A program made the position numbers and the translations under genes. 41,085 nt of DNA from a virus: IMG/VR virus record IMGVR_UViG_3300019468_000025, positions 1 through 41,085 of that record; one strand, given 5' to 3'. Below the pieces are notes generated by a model that worked only from the letters and a program-made list of their open reading frames with translations, was not told the origin of the DNA and searched no databases. Below are positions 10,360 to 28,264 of the stretch, one piece after another; positions within the stretch are counted from its first letter, which is position 1, and each line of letters begins with the position of its first letter.

Positions 10360-10680
10360 ATGGATTTTGTAAAGAGAATCAACGAGACACTACACACTGG
10401 CGATGACTGGGGCCGAGTATACAATATCAAAGGTGATATACCACTAGAGAATGCTCATGGTGTGTGTAAGCTACGCACTGTTAGTGATAAGCTTATACTA
10501 GAGGCTGATTGCACATTAGAGGGTAATCGTCTCACCGTGTGGATAAGGGGTAATAAGAGCCTACAAATCAAGCGTAGCTTACTTAGGTGTAAGTATGATG
10601 TATTCATTATCACACCTAGCCAGACTATCAAGCTAGTTATGGGCACTATGACTATAGTCCATGATGTGAGTATGCACTAA
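10360..10680 (+). CDS. Hypothetical protein (possible fiber assembly or accessory)
   Basis: An in-frame ATG after the fiber stop with an AGGTGA ribosome-binding site. The track ORF 10327 starts inside the upstream gene. Confidence 0.35.
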   Translation: MDFVKRINETLHTGDDWGRVYNIKGDIPLENAHGVCKLRTVSDKLILEADCTLEGNRLTVWIRGNKSLQIKRSLLRCKYDVFIITPSQTIKLVMGTMTIVHDVSMH

Positions 10681-10692
10681 GGAGGTGAAGAA

Positions 10693-11133
10693 ATGTCACT
10701 AGAGGTAGAATCTATTACACCGGTCAAACAGGCAGAGGTAGACGTAAGTATACCGGGGCCTAAAGGTGACCCAGGTGAAAGAGGTGAACCCGGTCCTATT
10801 GGACCACCTGGTCCGCCAGGAAAACCTTTCACATTTAGTGATTTTACGCAAGAGCAGCTAGAATCACTACGAGGGCCAAAAGGTGAAAGAGGTGAACCTG
10901 GGCCCAAGGGTGAGCCAGGTAATCCTGGTAAAGATGGTGAAAGAGGTGAACAAGGTCCTCCGGGTCCTAAGGGCGAACCATTACGCTTTGAGGATTTAAC
11001 CGAAAGCCAAAAGCAACAACTCAAAGGGCAAAAGGGTGACCCTGGCCCATCACCTGATACGAGTGAGTTCTTAGTAAAAGATGAGCTCGAACAGATTATT
11101 ATTAAACTAAGAGAAATCAACGGAGGTAACTAA
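10693..11133 (+). CDS. Collagen-like (Gly-X-Y) repeat protein
   Basis: Two runs of [24 protein letters not shown]-type triplets and a strong ribosome-binding site (AAGGAGGTGA). Confidence 0.75.
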
Positions 11134-11855: not shown

Positions 11856-12386
11856 ATGAATGAGCTAATACACTTTACTAGTGAAGCATGGAGGACTCTT
11901 ACTGAGTCCTTTGTGCTAAAAACTCTCTTGGCTATCATTGCCGAGGTAGCTATCTATATGCTTGGGTTAAAGCATGTCCAGGTACTAGGTATCTTTATAT
12001 TATTGGTATTCCTAGACCTAATCACAAAATGGGCCGCTATTGGCTACCAGATGCTACTAGACCTAGGTGCAAACCCTGATACACTAAGCGGCTCAGATAA
12101 GTACCTAGCTATACCAGCCGCATGGGGTAAAGGGCTAATTAATTCTAAGCATATGAGAAAGCCTTTTGTTACTAAGGTACTTACCTATTGCCTAGCTACT
12201 GGTGCTGCTTGGTGTTTTGACTTCATGGCCGGTAATTATGCTTTTGCTGTAAACCTTACATGGCTATACCTTGGGTCTGTGGAGTTCCTGTCTATCATGG
12301 AGAATATGCGTGATGGAGGTAATACCACTATAGCTGGCTTATTAGAGCTAGTTCAAGCTAAGATTGACGGTATTTTAAAGAAATGA
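11856..12386 (+). CDS. Holin
   Basis: A 176-aa ORF with several predicted transmembrane segments, immediately upstream of the endolysin. Confidence 0.5.
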   Translation: MNELIHFTSEAWRTLTESFVLKTLLAIIAEVAIYMLGLKHVQVLGIFILLVFLDLITKWAAIGYQMLLDLGANPDTLSGSDKYLAIPAAWGKGLINSKHMRKPFVTKVLTYCLATGAAWCFDFMAGNYAFAVNLTWLYLGSVEFLSIMENMRDGGNTTIAGLLELVQAKIDGILKK

Positions 12387-12394
12387 GGTAAAAG

Positions 12395-12799
12395 ATGAAA
12401 ATTGGTACTTACTTTGATGATTATGAGTTCTCTTGTAGTTGTTATAGGCATGAGCAAGACGGACAAGGTCATAATGTGTTAGACCACATTATTGATAAGC
12501 GATTGGTGGACTTACTAGACGCTATTCGTGAACGTATTGGCCAACCAATCACAATCAATAGTGGCTATCGTTGTGAGCCTCACAATGAGGAAGTTGGTGG
12601 TGTATCTAACTCCCAACACTGCCTAGGTACAGCCGCAGACATCACATATGATGGTGTTGATGTGGACTACCTAGCACAAGTAGCTGAGGAATGTGGTAGT
12701 GAGCTTGGTATCGAGGGTGGTATTGGCCGATACTATCACCAGGACTTTGTCCATGTTGATGTGAGAGGCTACGAAGCTCGCTGGGACGATTTAGACTAA
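12395..12799 (+). CDS. Endolysin, peptidase M15 (zinc D-Ala-D-Ala carboxypeptidase-like)
   Basis: It carries the SGYRCxxHN...H.xGxAADI...HVD zinc-binding motif pattern. Confidence 0.8.
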   Translation: MKIGTYFDDYEFSCSCYRHEQDGQGHNVLDHIIDKRLVDLLDAIRERIGQPITINSGYRCEPHNEEVGGVSNSQHCLGTAADITYDGVDVDYLAQVAEECGSELGIEGGIGRYYHQDFVHVDVRGYEARWDDLD

Positions 12800-12809
12800 G
12801 AGGTGTGTA

Positions 12810-13259
12810 ATGTATGAAAACTACATCAAGAAGATTAAATCTACGCTTACTACTAAGCGCCTTATTGCTGGTGCTCTTTGTGTGTTGCTCCTCATTGGTA
12901 TTGGCCAACTCGTCAGAGGTTACCTCACAGCCAGAGCCAACTATAACCGTGCCATTGAGCACTTGGAACGAGCTCAAAGAGAACTCGAAAGAAGCAAGCA
13001 ACTTAATCGAGAGCTCCAGCAAATCATTGAGCGAAGCACAATCCTCAATGACGAAGCAGGGAACAGCATTAACAGAATTGAAGATTATCAACGAAGAACG
13101 GAGCAAGGAATTAGCCGAGCTCAAAGCTATCAACGAGAAGCAAGCGAACGAGTTGAAGAAGGCCTCCATGACGCTCAAAGAGCAAGAGAGCTCATTGAAC
13201 GAAACCTCCAACTCATTGATAGAGTTGAAAGAAGAAATCAAGAAGAGCAAAGCCACTGA
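12810..13259 (+). CDS. Alternative overlapping frame (frame A): N-terminal transmembrane domain plus coiled coil, i-spanin-like architecture
   Basis: It is offset by +1 from frame B. The N-terminal transmembrane segment (LIAGALCVLLLIGIGQLV) shows the T-rich third-position codon bias of the rest of the genome, but the ribosome-binding-site spacing is only 4 nt. Only one of the two frames may be real. Confidence 0.3.
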   Translation: MYENYIKKIKSTLTTKRLIAGALCVLLLIGIGQLVRGYLTARANYNRAIEHLERAQRELERSKQLNRELQQIIERSTILNDEAGNSINRIEDYQRRTEQGISRAQSYQREASERVEEGLHDAQRARELIERNLQLIDRVERRNQEEQSH

Positions 13260-13335
13260 GCAGCGGCTACGGAGACAGCGCAATACTTGGTCCTATCTTA
13301 CTGGTATAACTGTGATTGCGGCAGCAATTAAATAA
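12814..13335 (+). CDS. Membrane-anchored coiled-coil protein (frame B): signal-like N-terminus and C-terminal transmembrane anchor
   Basis: An AGGTG ribosome-binding site lies 8 nt upstream. The N-terminus reads MKTTSRRLNLRLLLSALLLVLFVCCSS, followed by an E/K heptad coiled coil, and the C-terminus (RLRRQRNTWSYLTGITVIAAAIK) looks like a tail anchor. The stop lies about 55 nt before a terminator. Confidence 0.35.
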   Translation: MKTTSRRLNLRLLLSALLLVLFVCCSSLVLANSSEVTSQPEPTITVPLSTWNELKENSKEASNLIESSSKSLSEAQSSMTKQGTALTELKIINEERSKELAELKAINEKQANELKKASMTLKEQESSLNETSNSLIELKEEIKKSKATEQRLRRQRNTWSYLTGITVIAAAIK

Positions 13336-13389
13336 TGTGGAGGTGGTCCACCCATATCTCCAGAGTGTAGTCTGGCGGAACTACACATA

Positions 13390-13423
13390 CCCACTGGCTT
13401 TATAGCTGGTGGGTAATTTTTTT
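13390..13423 (+). terminator. Rho-independent terminator after the lysis module
   Basis: A stem cccactggc/gctggtggg (with G-U pairs) followed by TTTTTTT. A second hairpin (gtgtagt...actacac) precedes it at 13365-13386. Confidence 0.55.
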
Positions 13424-13426
13424 AGA

Positions 13427-20044: not shown

Positions 20045-22381
20045 CTACGATTTAGAGAGCTCTTTAAGTCTTTTAAAGTTCACTCCGTTGATGTCATCAT
20101 ACACCACTTCACCTGAGCCCCAAGGGCCAGCCTTTACCTCAACGTCTATAGGCACAGTAATTTGTGTCTTAAAGACTTTCTCGATGTGTTCCATATCCGT
20201 CATGATGTCTACAATCACAGGTACCGCTTCCTCTAGATAGTCATTACGTACCTCAAAGAGAATAGCGTCATGGACAGTACCTATAATTTTAACTCTTTCC
20301 ATGTCTAAGGTGTGAGCGATTCTAACCAGAGAGAATATATTGAAATCAGAGCCCAACCCCTGTACAGGTGAGTTTATAGCTTGACGTTCAGCTTCTGCGG
20401 CCAGTTTTTTGTCGCTGCTGTATATATCAGGCAAGTTCCTCTTACGTCCAACTAGGCTCCTTACATACCCATATTTTTTAACAATACGCCTCATGCGGTC
20501 ATGCCATGTAGGTAAGGCAAAGTAGGATTCAAAGAATCTCTGGCGAGTCTCGATAGCTTCTTCCTCGGTGTAATCTACTCCATATTTATCACGGGCATAC
20601 TCACGGAATTTCTTAGCGGACATACCATACAGGAAGCCAAAGTTAACTGCCTTGGCTTTCTTACGTTGGTCCTTTGTGACTTCCTCGAGTGGTACGCCCA
20701 TCACATTGGAGGCAGTCTTCTGGTGTACATCAATACCAGTTTGAAAGCACATTTTTAGTGTTGGGTCACCACTCATGATAGCGGCTATACGTAGCTCAGC
20801 TTGTGAGTAGTCGGCTTCACATAATGTCCAGCCAGGTGGTGCACTAATCAAAGAGCGTACTAGCTTATTACGTGGCACCTGTTGGAGATTAGGGTCCTTG
20901 CAGGAGATACGGCCAGTCACTGTGCCATGCAGTAGGAAAGAAGGGTGTATACGGTTATCAATGCTGACCTCTTTCCACTTGGTAGGGAATTCCAGCAATT
21001 TCTTTTGCTCACGGTAAGACAATAACTCACCAATGATGGGGTGCTGGTCTTTCAACCGTGGTAGCACACTTTCACCATTGGTGCTTGGCTTACCTGATTT
21101 TGTGAGCTCTAATATCGGTAGTCCCATTTCATCATAAAGTAGCTTAGCTAATTGCTGTGAGCTATTCCAATTAATATCATCATGACCAGACAGTTCAGCT
21201 AATGTCTTCAAAGAGGCTTGCATACTACCAGAGAGTTGACTAATCACACTGTCTACTTTGTCTGGGTCTATGTATGCACCATGTAGCTCAACGTCTTCAA
21301 AAGCTCGTGAAGCGGGCATAATAAGCTTGTTAAACAATCTAGCCAAAGGCTTATCAGCCATAAGCTCCTTACGTTGTAAGTGATATAGCCGGAGAGTATA
21401 ATGTACATCATAGGCATTATATTTGGCTAGCTTTCTCATATCTAGCTCATTAGCACCGTGGTCTTCTAAGGCATAACTAGGTGCATTGAGTAATACAGTA
21501 GCCATAGCTTTGAGCCCATTAGGTGTGTTTTCATTCAATAGAGCAGAGGCTAACATGGTATCAAAGGTCTGGTGAAATCTCCAACCCAGTTTGGTATACA
21601 TCATTTTGTTATCAAACTTGCCATTTTGTGCTATCAATTTCTTGCCTTTTGTGACCTGTGAGACCTGCTCTAATATTTTGATAAGGTTTCTATCGTCAGA
21701 GGACCAAGGGGACCCGTCATGGTCAATTGGGATAACCCATTCAGCGCCATCAACGCCTAATCCTAAACAGGTAATTTTGACATCAGGGTCTAGTGGGTTA
21801 AGGCCTGTGGTCTCAATATCATAAGAGATAGCGTCAGCAGCAGCGAGTGACCTAATCATAGCTTTGGCTTTATTAGGTGTATTCACAAGAGTAAAATTAA
21901 GTACATTCTCATCTTCGATACGGCCACCGATGACCTTAGAGAAGGTGTTCCAATGTGCTTTAACAAGCTCCCACTTCTGTGGCTGTCTAAATGTGATTGC
22001 AGGGTCCATGCTGAACATATAGGTCCTATCATCAATAGTAGTATTCATACCAGCATTCTCTGTGATTTTACCTTTACCAAGTATAGCGGTCACAGCCATA
22101 GCACCAATACCAATCACATAATTAAATTTGTCTAATATAGGTACGATACGCTCCTTATATGATTCTTGTATTTGCTTCTTAGGTACCTTCTCAGTGACTA
22201 GCTGCTCACAGATATAGGCCGTAGAACATTCCTCAGGCTCTACACCTAATATGGCTATAAGCTCATTGAGTTGTTTCTTGATTCTACCAGAGAATGGTTT
22301 ACCTGTGGCCTCATCAGAGTAACCAGGTTGACCCCCTAGTATAAGTATATTAGAGCATTTCTTAATATCTAAGTACATCAT
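20045..22381 (-). CDS. Family A DNA polymerase with 3'-5' exonuclease and an N-terminal family-4 UDG-like domain
   Basis: ExoI ISYDIETTG; motif A DYSQAELRIAA; motif B KAKAVNFGFLYGMS; motif C VHDAILFEV. The N-terminus reads ILGGQPGYSDEATGKPFSG, which resembles the UDG-family-4 GEAPG...GxPFxG motif. Confidence 0.85.
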   Translation of the reverse strand: MMYLDIKKCSNILILGGQPGYSDEATGKPFSGRIKKQLNELIAILGVEPEECSTAYICEQLVTEKVPKKQIQESYKERIVPILDKFNYVIGIGAMAVTAILGKGKITENAGMNTTIDDRTYMFSMDPAITFRQPQKWELVKAHWNTFSKVIGGRIEDENVLNFTLVNTPNKAKAMIRSLAAADAISYDIETTGLNPLDPDVKITCLGLGVDGAEWVIPIDHDGSPWSSDDRNLIKILEQVSQVTKGKKLIAQNGKFDNKMMYTKLGWRFHQTFDTMLASALLNENTPNGLKAMATVLLNAPSYALEDHGANELDMRKLAKYNAYDVHYTLRLYHLQRKELMADKPLARLFNKLIMPASRAFEDVELHGAYIDPDKVDSVISQLSGSMQASLKTLAELSGHDDINWNSSQQLAKLLYDEMGLPILELTKSGKPSTNGESVLPRLKDQHPIIGELLSYREQKKLLEFPTKWKEVSIDNRIHPSFLLHGTVTGRISCKDPNLQQVPRNKLVRSLISAPPGWTLCEADYSQAELRIAAIMSGDPTLKMCFQTGIDVHQKTASNVMGVPLEEVTKDQRKKAKAVNFGFLYGMSAKKFREYARDKYGVDYTEEEAIETRQRFFESYFALPTWHDRMRRIVKKYGYVRSLVGRKRNLPDIYSSDKKLAAEAERQAINSPVQGLGSDFNIFSLVRIAHTLDMERVKIIGTVHDAILFEVRNDYLEEAVPVIVDIMTDMEHIEKVFKTQITVPIDVEVKAGPWGSGEVVYDDINGVNFKRLKELSKS

Positions 22382-26427: not shown

Positions 26428-28264
26428 TATTTTATTCAAAGTGTGGAACGCTCAGAAAGTGCATGGGTATGTAAGTATGAGCGAGAGGAACACTAACCTC
26501 TCTAGCACCGAGGATGGTTACTGGAGTGACCGTTCGTGGAAGTGGCCACAGGATAAAGCTAAGGTGCAAGAGTGGTATAGTGAACATAGCCAGAAGGACG
26601 GCTATGATATTTACTGGAGCCCAGCCGTGTATAGTAAGCCAGGTAGACACCAGCAAGATGTGATAAGTCACAATGTGTTCTATGCTGACCTTGACCCTGT
26701 GGACCCACGCACCATAGGTACAAAGCCAAGTGTAGCCTGGGAGAGCAGTCCAGGTAGGTACCAGGCTGTGTGGCTCTATCAGAATGACCTCAGTGTAGAG
26801 GATTGGCTCGCAAGGAACCGCAATCTTTCCTATGCTGTGGGCGCTGACAGAAGTGGCTGGGACCTGACCCAAGTGCTGAGAGTACCAGGTGGTAAGAATC
26901 ATAAGTATAAGCCCGTGGTGACAGGTAAACTCTTATGGCAGAGGTGGGACAACCTTGATAGTGTGCCAGAGAGTGAGGTAGAAGTAGTAGTTGATGAGGT
27001 AAGTACGCACGAGAACCTCTTGCTACGACTGCTCACTAAGTACAAGCGAGAGATACCGGCCAAGGTGAGTCGTATGCTACAATATCCACCAAGTCGTATT
27101 GAGCCTGGTCATCGCAGTGATATGCTATGGTACCTAGAGAGTGAACTCGTGAAGTCACAGATACCGCTAGAGGACATAGTGGTTCTTATCCGTGATAGCG
27201 CTTGGAATAAGTATCGTGGCCGCTCTGACGAGCAAGAACGTATCTACACAGAGGTCAGCAAGGTGTACCAACAGAGCATACAAGGTACGCTCCGTGTGAA
27301 AGAGCCTGTGGACGATGTGCTATCAAATTATGAGGACATCATGGGAAGCCTCGTAGATAGGCCTGGTTGGTTGATTCGTGATATATGGATGAAGAACAGC
27401 CATGGTATTGTTGCTGGTGAGCCTAAGACCTATAAAAGTACTATCACCACAGATATAGCCGTGAGTGTAGCGAGTGGCGCTAAGCTATGGGACAAGTATG
27501 AGGTAGAAGACCCAGGGCCTGTGCTTATCATACAGAACGAGAACGCCCCATGGATAGTGAAGAGCCGCCTTGAAGCTATCATAGAGAGCAAAGGCTTAGT
27601 GGGTAATGTCGTACAGAATGGCCGAACGCTCACTATCACATGGCCTCCAGTGTTGCCTATCTATCACATCAATAACAGTGGTTTCTCGCTCGATAGCTCT
27701 GAGGACTGTGATATGCTGATGAGTTATGTGGAGAAGATACGGCCAAAGCTACTGATACTTGACCCACTGTACCTGATGTTCGAAGGTGACATAAACTCCG
27801 CCAAGGAGTTATCGCCAGTGCTCCAGTTCTTGCTCAGTGTACGTGATACCTATGGGTGTAGTATCATGGTCATTCATCACTGGAACAAGAATGGCTCTAG
27901 TAGTCGTGGTGGGCAGAGAATGCTAGGTAGTGCAACGCTACATGGCTGGACTGATAGCTCGCTCTTCCTCAGTAGAGACGAAGGCGATGTAGTCATAGAG
28001 CGAGAGTTCCGATGCGCTAGCAGTGGTGGTAAGCTTGTCCTGCAGGTTGACGCTGACGAGGTAAGGTACAGGGTTAGGGTAGGTGAGCAGAAGGCTGACG
28101 GTGAGGATAGTGTGGGTGTTGTGCTTGACTATCTCAGCATGTACCCTGGTGGACAGAGGTTGTCTGACATCGTGCGAGGGACAGGCCTCACCAAGTATGA
28201 GGTCAGCAAGGTGCTCACAGGAGATAGCCGTGTGAAGAGGAAAGGAGCTCTGTATAGTCTATGA
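26420..28264 (+). CDS. Primase-polymerase N-terminal domain plus AAA_25 (RepA/DnaB-like P-loop) helicase domain
   Basis: A P-loop GEPKTYKST; LILDPLYLMFEGD...MVIHHWNKNG; and an N-terminal DIYWSPAVY...YADLDPVD primase-like region. The internal ATG at 26420 is taken as the start. Confidence 0.55.
   Translation: MIDILFKVWNAQKVHGYVSMSERNTNLSSTEDGYWSDRSWKWPQDKAKVQEWYSEHSQKDGYDIYWSPAVYSKPGRHQQDVISHNVFYADLDPVDPRTIGTKPSVAWESSPGRYQAVWLYQNDLSVEDWLARNRNLSYAVGADRSGWDLTQVLRVPGGKNHKYKPVVTGKLLWQRWDNLDSVPESEVEVVVDEVSTHENLLLRLLTKYKREIPAKVSRMLQYPPSRIEPGHRSDMLWYLESELVKSQIPLEDIVVLIRDSAWNKYRGRSDEQERIYTEVSKVYQQSIQGTLRVKEPVDDVLSNYEDIMGSLVDRPGWLIRDIWMKNSHGIVAGEPKTYKSTITTDIAVSVASGAKLWDKYEVEDPGPVLIIQNENAPWIVKSRLEAIIESKGLVGNVVQNGRTLTITWPPVLPIYHINNSGFSLDSSEDCDMLMSYVEKIRPKLLILDPLYLMFEGDINSAKELSPVLQFLLSVRDTYGCSIMVIHHWNKNGSSSRGGQRMLGSATLHGWTDSSLFLSRDEGDVVIEREFRCASSGGKLVLQVDADEVRYRVRVGEQKADGEDSVGVVLDYLSMYPGGQRLSDIVRGTGLTKYEVSKVLTGDSRVKRKGALYSL

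Follow-up and report, generated by a model that had tools for sequence, protein, structure and literature searches.

The virus record IMGVR_UViG_3300019468_000025 of the IMG/VR database carries, directly behind an endolysin gene, two reading frames of the same strand, A and B, whose overlap of about 445 nucleotides (nt) occupies about 99% of A. We are highly confident that both frames are real protein-coding genes and that this DNA is dual coding. The window, i.e., the whole stretch of 41,085 nt that was analysed, represents an entire tailed-phage genome of about 41 kb. The A/B pair very probably has a role in lysis, and its best overall reading, in which we place moderate confidence, is that of a lipoprotein-independent analogue of the two-component spanins. 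This reading is suggested by the position of the pair in the lysis cassette, by the i-spanin layout of A, and by a host in which the outer-membrane step of lysis has no lipoprotein option. The preliminary description of this DNA left a choice between a genuine overlapped pair of spanin-like lysis accessory genes and a single gene with an unclear frame. The former is favoured here, as both frames are open and selected and the pair is last in the cassette, with the spanin function predicted from position and topology; the latter is rejected by the openness of both frames and the selection on both. The coordinates and peptide strings of the two frames were found exactly as quoted in that description.

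Dual coding of the A/B locus

Each frame matches about 600 predicted public proteins, and about 630 homologues were obtained for B. Gene callers pick A in some contigs and B in others; in the public record of the analysed contig (JGI record 3300022580 Ga0248024_175), only frame A is called, and no gene on record has the exact product of B. Since callers report one frame per contig, essentially every record, this contig's included, lacks either A or B, i.e., automated annotation seems to drop a partner each time.

The related loci form three groups, which comprise 155 close loci with DNA (group 1), 80 loci (group 2), and 36 loci (group 3; 35 from the P0280 scan plus L236). In group 1, the ATGnATG start and both intact open reading frames (ORFs) are present in 147 of the 155 loci, with A of 145-166 amino acids (aa) and B of 173-179 aa; of the remaining eight, six run off the end of a contig, another is a chimeric join, and the last, L155, carries two frameshifts. 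The same architecture is observed in all 76 complete loci of group 2 (A 133-162 aa, B 152-160 aa) and in all 35 P0280-scan loci of group 3 (A 143-144 aa, B 161-162 aa), while in L236 the A start is located 12 nt further upstream. The third plus-strand frame of the group-2 and group-3 loci contains 13-22 stops. Thus, both frames are open across hundreds of loci in three groups, which is the kind of conservation the preliminary description had proposed to look for, and no complete locus shows the pattern named there as contrary to a gene pair, homologues with only one frame open.

Comparison of the groups by hhalign revealed homology for B with E = 6e-38 (44% identity) and 6e-8. The corresponding values for A are 3e-30 at 32% identity and 2e-9 at 22%, and an indel of 14 codons between the groups is common to both frames. 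The pair is inherited as a unit through deep divergence. More distant relatives were collected by running a profile of A against 1.8 billion representative proteins; nearly all of them start with M-[Y/N/H]-[E/D/G/A], which corresponds to ATG NAT GNN, so the second ATG at +4 is present there as well. A search of 50,697 phage records (INPHARED) by blastn/tblastn with the region, both proteins, and the group-2/3 relatives did not reveal the module, giving three chance matches (E = 0.4) to tape-measure genes. When contigs were scanned, B alone gave no match, and an alignment-based repeat of the scan yielded one V. parvula metagenome-assembled genome.

The relative ends of the two genes vary inside the family. 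In many group-2 loci with a long A (160-162 aa; e.g., L162, L163, and L164, at about 2975-2990), A ends after B, so that B is fully embedded, and the A stop is the TGA within the conserved GAGGTGATCC motif. In the group-2 loci with a short A (133-136 aa), B extends past A. The switch from the embedded to the overlapped architecture therefore occurs within one family.

The starts of the two genes are 4 nt apart and form ATGTATGA. The GAGG core of the upstream Shine-Dalgarno (SD) sequence ends 6 nt before the A ATG and 10 nt before the B ATG (5 and 9 nt in most relatives), and all related loci have an SD-like GGAG/GGGGG 5-6 nt before the A ATG, hence 9-10 nt before that of B. The better ribosome-binding-site spacing initially attributed to B is not clearly seen, since one SD sequence is common to both starts and gives B no clear advantage.

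The openness of the two frames is far beyond chance. When the codon usage of the 36 other window genes is taken as the chance model, 17.9 stops are expected in frame A of the window given the B protein, with a probability of 5.6e-11 for the frame being open, while the probability of an open B given the A protein is 1.0e-7; the third plus-strand frame contains 17 stops versus about 16 expected. Across all groups, the respective probabilities range from 3e-12 to 4e-8 for A and from 1e-7 to 1e-4 for B.

One can suppose that only B is a gene and that frame A is accidentally open owing to the composition or codon bias of B. Such a view could draw on the choice of B alone by gene callers in many contigs, on the third codon position of B being the fastest-evolving site, and on the higher conservation of B between the groups (44% versus 32% identity for A). 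However, it has to account for the 18 or so stops missing from A, and shuffling the synonymous codons of B, with the skewed usage of B itself retained, preserves an open A in just 0-1.5% of the trials (six diverged lineages). The share of T at the third codon positions of B is 0.11, versus 0.21-0.49 in 45 other window ORFs, and it is back to 0.29 past the A stop, while T is never present in the 47-64 contexts per sequence where it would give a stop in A. Retention of the A start codon, transmembrane segment, and helix in three deeply diverged groups, together with the selection on A described below, makes this explanation very improbable.

Selection was analysed in 115 unique group-1 sequences, for which 1619 substitutions were placed by parsimony on a neighbour-joining (NJ) tree with recombination ignored. 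Sites synonymous in B and non-synonymous in A evolve at 0.40-0.48 times the rate of B-synonymous sites past the A stop (p ~1e-10). Of the A<->C changes that are synonymous in B, the ones that leave A unaltered too (Arg CGR/AGR) amount to 39 events per 5.0 sites and the ones altering A to 74 events per 40.7 sites, i.e., doubly synonymous changes are 4-5x enriched (p = 3e-11). The replacements that do occur in A are conservative (mean BLOSUM62 0.69 versus 0.26 expected, z = 6.8), and z is identical for B in the converse test. In the main clade, the synonymous divergence of B in the overlap is 0.081 versus 0.373 in the adjacent endolysin gene, the non-synonymous divergence being equal. Real truncations of A are confined to codons 146-153. 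In the overlap, about 30 single-base changes would introduce a stop into A and be silent in B, and about 32 would act the opposite way. For B, the ratio of non-synonymous to synonymous rates is about 0.2-0.5. The constraint on synonymous sites, which the preliminary description had suggested examining, thus revealed purifying selection on both frames. Two points weigh against this conclusion: the tests rest on NJ trees and parsimony that leave phage recombination aside, and the constraint on A is barely visible along the axis of A-synonymous/B-non-synonymous sites (rate ratio 0.8-0.85).

The opposite supposition, that only the annotated A (a member of phrog_18860) is a gene and B is open by chance, appears to be the least probable of all. 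It agrees with the source record of the contig, which calls A alone, and with the codon usage, which is atypical in both frames and nearer to that of the genome in A (z = -2.0 versus -4.3 for B); moreover, shuffling with A's own codon usage leaves B open in 3-63% of the trials. Yet under the genome codon usage an open B is improbable in every group, as stated above, and the third position of A is not the fast site. Non-synonymous changes in B are suppressed both in the overlap and beyond it, and its signal peptide, PTITVPLxxWNELK motif, basic cluster, and tail are conserved, the tail lying partly past the A stop. The codon usage closer to the genome suggests, tentatively, that A is the older frame of the two.

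The minus strand is also open here, as was noticed initially, and this openness is a by-product predicted by the B protein sequence: B alone leads one to expect 1.1 stops in the minus-strand ORF, with a probability of 0.19 for none. The share of loci in which this ORF has no stop falls from 89% in group 1 to 21% in group 2 and 0% in group 3. Being expected from the B sequence and not retained in groups 2 and 3, it was rejected as a gene.

Predicted topology of the two proteins

Protein A matches phrog_18860, a family with no assigned function, at E = 2.7e-35, and 25 of its 25 aligned relatives do the same (best E = 1.3e-49). The uncharged run LIAGALCVLLLIGIGQLV near its N-terminus represents a predicted transmembrane segment, and the flank before this segment has a net charge of +4; the same layout, with a segment of 18-25 residues and a basic N-terminus, occurs in all three groups. 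AlphaFold2 (AF2) predicts a helix at residues 15-148 with a predicted local distance difference test score (pLDDT) of 82-93, while the C-terminal end is variable. The only Cys of the window A is inside the transmembrane segment. Hydropathy and the AF2 prediction bear out the earlier view of A as an i-spanin-like type-II protein with an N-terminal transmembrane segment and a coiled coil. Most likely, A inserts into the cytoplasmic membrane with its N-terminus inside and exposes a periplasmic helix of about 110 residues; at the level of sequence prediction, it has the three features by which i-spanins are recognised, namely an N-terminal transmembrane segment, a positive cytoplasmic flank, and a coiled-coil periplasmic domain.

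Protein B starts with a signal peptide composed of a basic n-region, an h-region, and a c-region which ends in V-L-A before N32. The small residues at -3/-1 are conserved (VLA, ALA, VHA, SFA, SHA, and VYG), which suggests that B is exported via Sec and cleaved by signal peptidase I. The double Cys highlighted in the preliminary description does not hold as a feature of B: both residues are inside the signal peptide, and many homologues (L001, L064, and the main clade) either lack the Cys or have it at another position, while the AxA-type signal-peptidase-I site is conserved. The window sequence LFVC does not fit the lipobox [LVI][ASTVI][GAS]C. As the Cys is not conserved, B has no lipobox, and its assignment to lipoproteins was rejected.

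About 16 disordered residues follow the signal of B and end in the PTITVPLxxWNELK motif, which is represented in the window by PTITVPLSTWNELK; T43, I44, V46, W51, and N52 are invariant in group 1, and the group-2 form is PTI(T/S)VPLTQWNELK. The rest of the protein is predicted by AF2 as a single helix of 125 residues (48-172, pLDDT 93-98). Its C-terminal part contains TEQRLRRQR(D/N)TW, invariant in group 1, with IKRLRMQRN and KMQQRNSK as the group-2/3 equivalents followed by Gly-rich tails. The tail includes an uncharged run of 15-18 residues and then one or two charged ones. The matches obtained in searches of Pfam, NCBIfam, and PDB sequences were all sub-threshold and to coiled coils, such as those of SMC, tape measure, and Lpp/OprI; the match of B to TIGR04211 (SH3_and_anchor) is also sub-threshold, far below the cut-off.

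In the helical parts of A and B (window 12950-13250), hydrophobic (LIVMF) residues of the two proteins fall on the same codons: their cross-correlation has its maximum (r = 0.35-0.57) at lag 0, and their heptads differ in phase by less than 35 degrees. Since the hydrophobic residues share codons, two coiled-coil seams are encoded in register by the same DNA.

The A/B pair resembles other viral overprinted pairs in its long same-strand overlap, purifying selection on both frames, suppressed synonymous rate, and the more genome-like codons of A. In usual overprinting, the newer protein is short or disordered, according to Rancurel et al. as cited in PMC6139136. Unlike this, both A and B are confidently predicted as long helices with heptads in register, and their overlap is essentially complete. 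As an example of dual coding, the pair is extreme and unusually clean: about 445 nt are read in two frames as two ordered helices, and this arrangement is kept down to 22-32% identity of A. It lends itself well to studies of how one stretch of DNA can specify two coiled coils simultaneously.

Position in the lysis cassette and the proposed spanin-like function

In every locus inspected, the A/B module is located directly after the endolysin gene as the last gene unit of the lysis cassette, which has the order holin, endolysin, A/B, terminator. The endolysins that precede it belong to four unrelated families (Peptidase_M15_3, Amidase_3, Amidase_2, and Glyco_hydro_25), and the holins differ too. 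This constant position behind unrelated endolysins and different holins argues that A/B travels as a lysis-cassette unit. Lysis cassettes are shuffled modularly among Veillonella phages, the A/B unit staying last. Examples of the endolysin genes ahead of A/B, besides that of the window, are located at 1913-2488 in L021, 1980-2501 in L162, and 1868-2491 in L243.

The organism-named homologues (groups 1 and 3) are assigned to Veillonella, either Veillonella parvula or Veillonella sp. As this genus is a diderm Firmicute, the hint of a diderm host given in the preliminary description is strengthened. LolA/LolB are missing from all Negativicutes genomes, and V. parvula is not known to have outer-membrane lipoproteins (PMC5007114, PMC10665443). 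In a group devoid of both the Lol pathway and known outer-membrane lipoproteins, a non-lipidated design would suit the host. LolA is present, by comparison, in the Halanaerobiales. Large spanin surveys define o- and u-spanins by the lipobox, and one survey reports no spanins in phages of Gram-positive hosts or Cyanobacteria, with diderm Firmicutes unmentioned; the spanin literature that we searched does not deal with phage exit from diderm Firmicutes, and we found no paper on lysis by Veillonella phages.

No lipobox ORF is located near the cassette in the window. The only lipobox-like ORFs of the window, 22128-22217 (+) and 28083-28235 (+), are short, lie in alternative frames over replication genes, and probably arose by chance; a canonical o- or u-spanin hidden elsewhere in the window was rejected, as these two ORFs are far from the cassette.

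We suppose that A and B are translated from the two close starts behind the single SD sequence and would assemble into a coiled-coil complex spanning the periplasm. After the endolysin removes the wall, this complex may destabilise the outer membrane or fuse it with the inner one, the contact with the outer membrane being provided by the non-lipidated B through its hydrophobic tail or N-terminal motif. In one possible arrangement, the B tail would reside in the outer membrane and the A transmembrane segment in the inner one, and the helices (~16-19 nm each) could bridge the periplasm. In another, the inner membrane would hold the anchors of both proteins, and the outer membrane or the wall would be touched by their distal tip, composed of the A C-terminus and the B N-terminal motif. 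On balance, we incline slightly towards a disruption of the outer membrane equivalent to that produced by spanins.

The closest analogue of A/B is the Rz/Rz1 type of spanin pair, embedded in lambda and overlapped in P2-type phages. Like A/B, these pairs close the lysis cassette behind the endolysin gene; one of the two proteins, about 150 aa long, is of type II, resides in the inner membrane, and has a coiled coil in the periplasm, and the second gene is in the +1 frame of the first. The Rz protein of lambda is reportedly of about 153 aa, close to the length of A. The gene order used for recognising two-component spanins (beside holin and endolysin, with the partner gene embedded, overlapped, or separated and often in the +1 frame) is also that of A/B.

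The differences are nevertheless substantial. About 70% of embedded o-spanin genes run from 0.4-0.5 L to 0.9-1 L, while B extends from 0.01 L to a point past the A end or, in group 2, slightly short of it; together with the overlap of nearly the whole of A, this geometry is outside the range described for 528 two-component spanins. The Rz1-type o-spanin is a short proline-rich peptide, while B is a 140-residue helix, and the A/B host has no Lol pathway. B also resembles the u-spanin gp11 of T1, which combines an N-terminal export signal, a periplasmic domain, and a C-terminal hydrophobic segment and is last in its cassette. However, the signal of gp11 is that of an outer-membrane lipoprotein and the signal of B is of the signal-peptidase-I type; in addition, B is all-helical, has a short tail, and possesses an obligatory overlapped partner. 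Since B is not lipoprotein-like, it is neither a canonical o-spanin nor a canonical u-spanin. We therefore do not assign A/B to any described spanin family and regard it as a variant of a spanin-type system.

Another precedent concerns the starts: lambda S is said to have two close in-frame starts in one ribosome-binding region, which give the S105 holin and the S107 antiholin, products differing by two residues. In both systems, starts a few nt apart behind one ribosome-binding region give two lysis proteins, although the A/B starts are out of frame (+4 nt) and their products have no common sequence.

Several observations weigh against a spanin analogue. The A family matches the Rz-like PHROGs 6197, 1403, 739, 214, and 5151 weakly (E = 8e-4 to 0.08, in a minority of the 25 members scanned); at this marginal likeness (E ~1e-3), homology to the Rz families is unestablished and coiled-coil composition alone could be responsible. 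B has no lipobox of the o-spanin kind, and its length is three times that of a typical o-spanin. A periplasmic Cys is described as universal in two-component spanins (PMC6139136), and the periplasmic domains of A and B have none. The B tail is short (15-18 uncharged residues), and its basic cluster is located before the tail rather than after it, which is a mild argument against a classical stop-transfer anchor. Finally, if both proteins were anchored in the inner membrane, the link to the outer membrane would be unexplained.

The main competing view assigns A/B an accessory role at the cytoplasmic membrane other than that of a spanin: both genes would be real, and their products would be holin-timing regulators (antiholin-like or Lcc6-like) or envelope proteins of superinfection exclusion, with no outer-membrane role. 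We consider this rather unlikely, although the marginal matches do not demonstrate homology to spanins, accessory lysis factors of the cytoplasmic membrane exist (e.g., Lcc6 of LambdaSo), and the hydropathy is compatible with the location of both proteins in this membrane; the combination of signal, coiled coil, and C-terminal anchor in B is also what gives the sub-threshold TIGR04211 match. The module is, however, exactly in the spanin position behind four endolysin types and different holins, which argues for a holin-independent, envelope-directed job. Moreover, phages of diderm hosts need an outer-membrane step, no lipobox ORF is available near the window cassette, and A has the layout and length of an i-spanin.

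Within the spanin-analogue reading, one may go further and suggest, as a tentative possibility, that A/B represents a new spanin class for two-membraned Firmicutes without lipoprotein sorting. Its in-register heteromeric coiled coil would be anchored in the inner membrane by A, the basic-Trp-hydrophobic tail of B would insert lipid-free into the outer membrane, the membranes would be drawn together after wall removal, and the pseudoknot downstream of B (see below) would serve as a control or stability element. The basic-Trp-hydrophobic tail has a SNARE-like juxtamembrane layout. A conserved non-lipoprotein candidate in the spanin position makes phage exit from diderm Firmicutes directly testable and suggests a way of disrupting the outer membrane in which no lipid anchor is needed.

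The downstream element and other features of the window

The coordinates of the discussed features are summarised in Table 1. Downstream of B, a conserved 3' element is located, which consists of a complement to the 16S rRNA tail, ATCTCC, and an H-type pseudoknot. Its first part reads GAGGTGATCC in the consensus, which is perfectly complementary to the 3' tail of 16S rRNA, and GGAGGTGGTCC in the window. The element begins 0-6 nt after the B stop in 228 of 258 loci from all three groups (e.g., ~3034-3080 in L021, 3040-3090 in L064, and ~2989-3040 in L237). The pseudoknot is supported by covariation: 96.7% of the cells are paired, nine of the 11 pairs are changed on both sides, none of 500 shuffles matches this, and slid controls give 27-55%. 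The Rfam search gave no match for the window or the 3' element. The link of the element to A/B is positional only. It is followed by the terminator, and equivalent terminators occur downstream of the A/B module in related loci.

Table 1. Coordinates of the A/B locus and its surroundings in the window
Feature	Position	Strand	Basis or comment
Holin (Phage_holin_4_1)	11856-12386	+	Domain match
Endolysin (Peptidase_M15_3)	12395-12799	+	Domain match
Minus-strand ORF, 213 aa	12642-13283	-	Open reading frame
Shared Shine-Dalgarno GAGGTG	12800..12805	+	Read from sequence; serves both starts
Gene A, 149 aa; predicted type-II membrane protein, i-spanin-like, phrog_18860 member	12810..13259	+	ORF
A transmembrane segment, residues 18-35	12861..12914	+	Hydropathy (KD19 = 2.19), uncharged run
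Gene B, 173 aa; predicted exported coiled-coil protein with C-terminal hydrophobic tail	12814..13335	+	ORF in the +1 frame of A
B signal peptide, residues 1-31	12814..12906	+	Alignments
B mature N-terminal motif	12937..12978	+	Invariant residues in group 1
B basic cluster RLRRQRN, Trp, and 13-16-residue hydrophobic tail ending in Lys	13264..13332	+	Beyond A stop
Conserved 3' element	13339..13386	+	Conservation and covariation
Pseudoknot stem S1	13360-13363/13372-13375		
Pseudoknot stem S2	13365-13371/13380-13386		
Intrinsic terminator closing the late/lysis operon	13388..13424	+	12-bp stem, then T-run; strong; also given as 13388-13415

The presence of an SD-like sequence and a pseudoknot near the overlap could suggest programmed ribosomal frameshifting that joins the two frames into fusions, e.g., of the A transmembrane segment with the B tail. 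Database proteins which begin in one frame and end in the other are indeed observed (P0242, P0245, P0249, P0263, and P0279). Nonetheless, their junctions differ and the switches go in both directions, as random assembly indels would, the pseudoknot is downstream of both stops and outside the overlap, and two conserved ATGs behind one SD sequence explain both products without recoding. Frameshifting is therefore very unlikely, although slippery sites were not looked for systematically, and the chimeric proteins were rejected as evidence for recoding. Together with L155, which has its two frameshifts inside the module (2450-2990), these proteins are explained most simply by assembly indels or a decayed prophage copy, real frame-switch variants being possible.

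Outside the lysis cassette, one strand of the window encodes the terminase, portal, tape measure, baseplate, and tail fibre, and the opposite strand the DNA polymerase, helicase, primase, and exonuclease. Among the tail genes, there is one for a collagen-like protein of 146 aa with Gly-X-Y repeats (10693-11133, plus strand). Opposite to it, a 147-aa ORF (10677-11120, minus strand) is open, which is probably a compositional by-product of the repeat.

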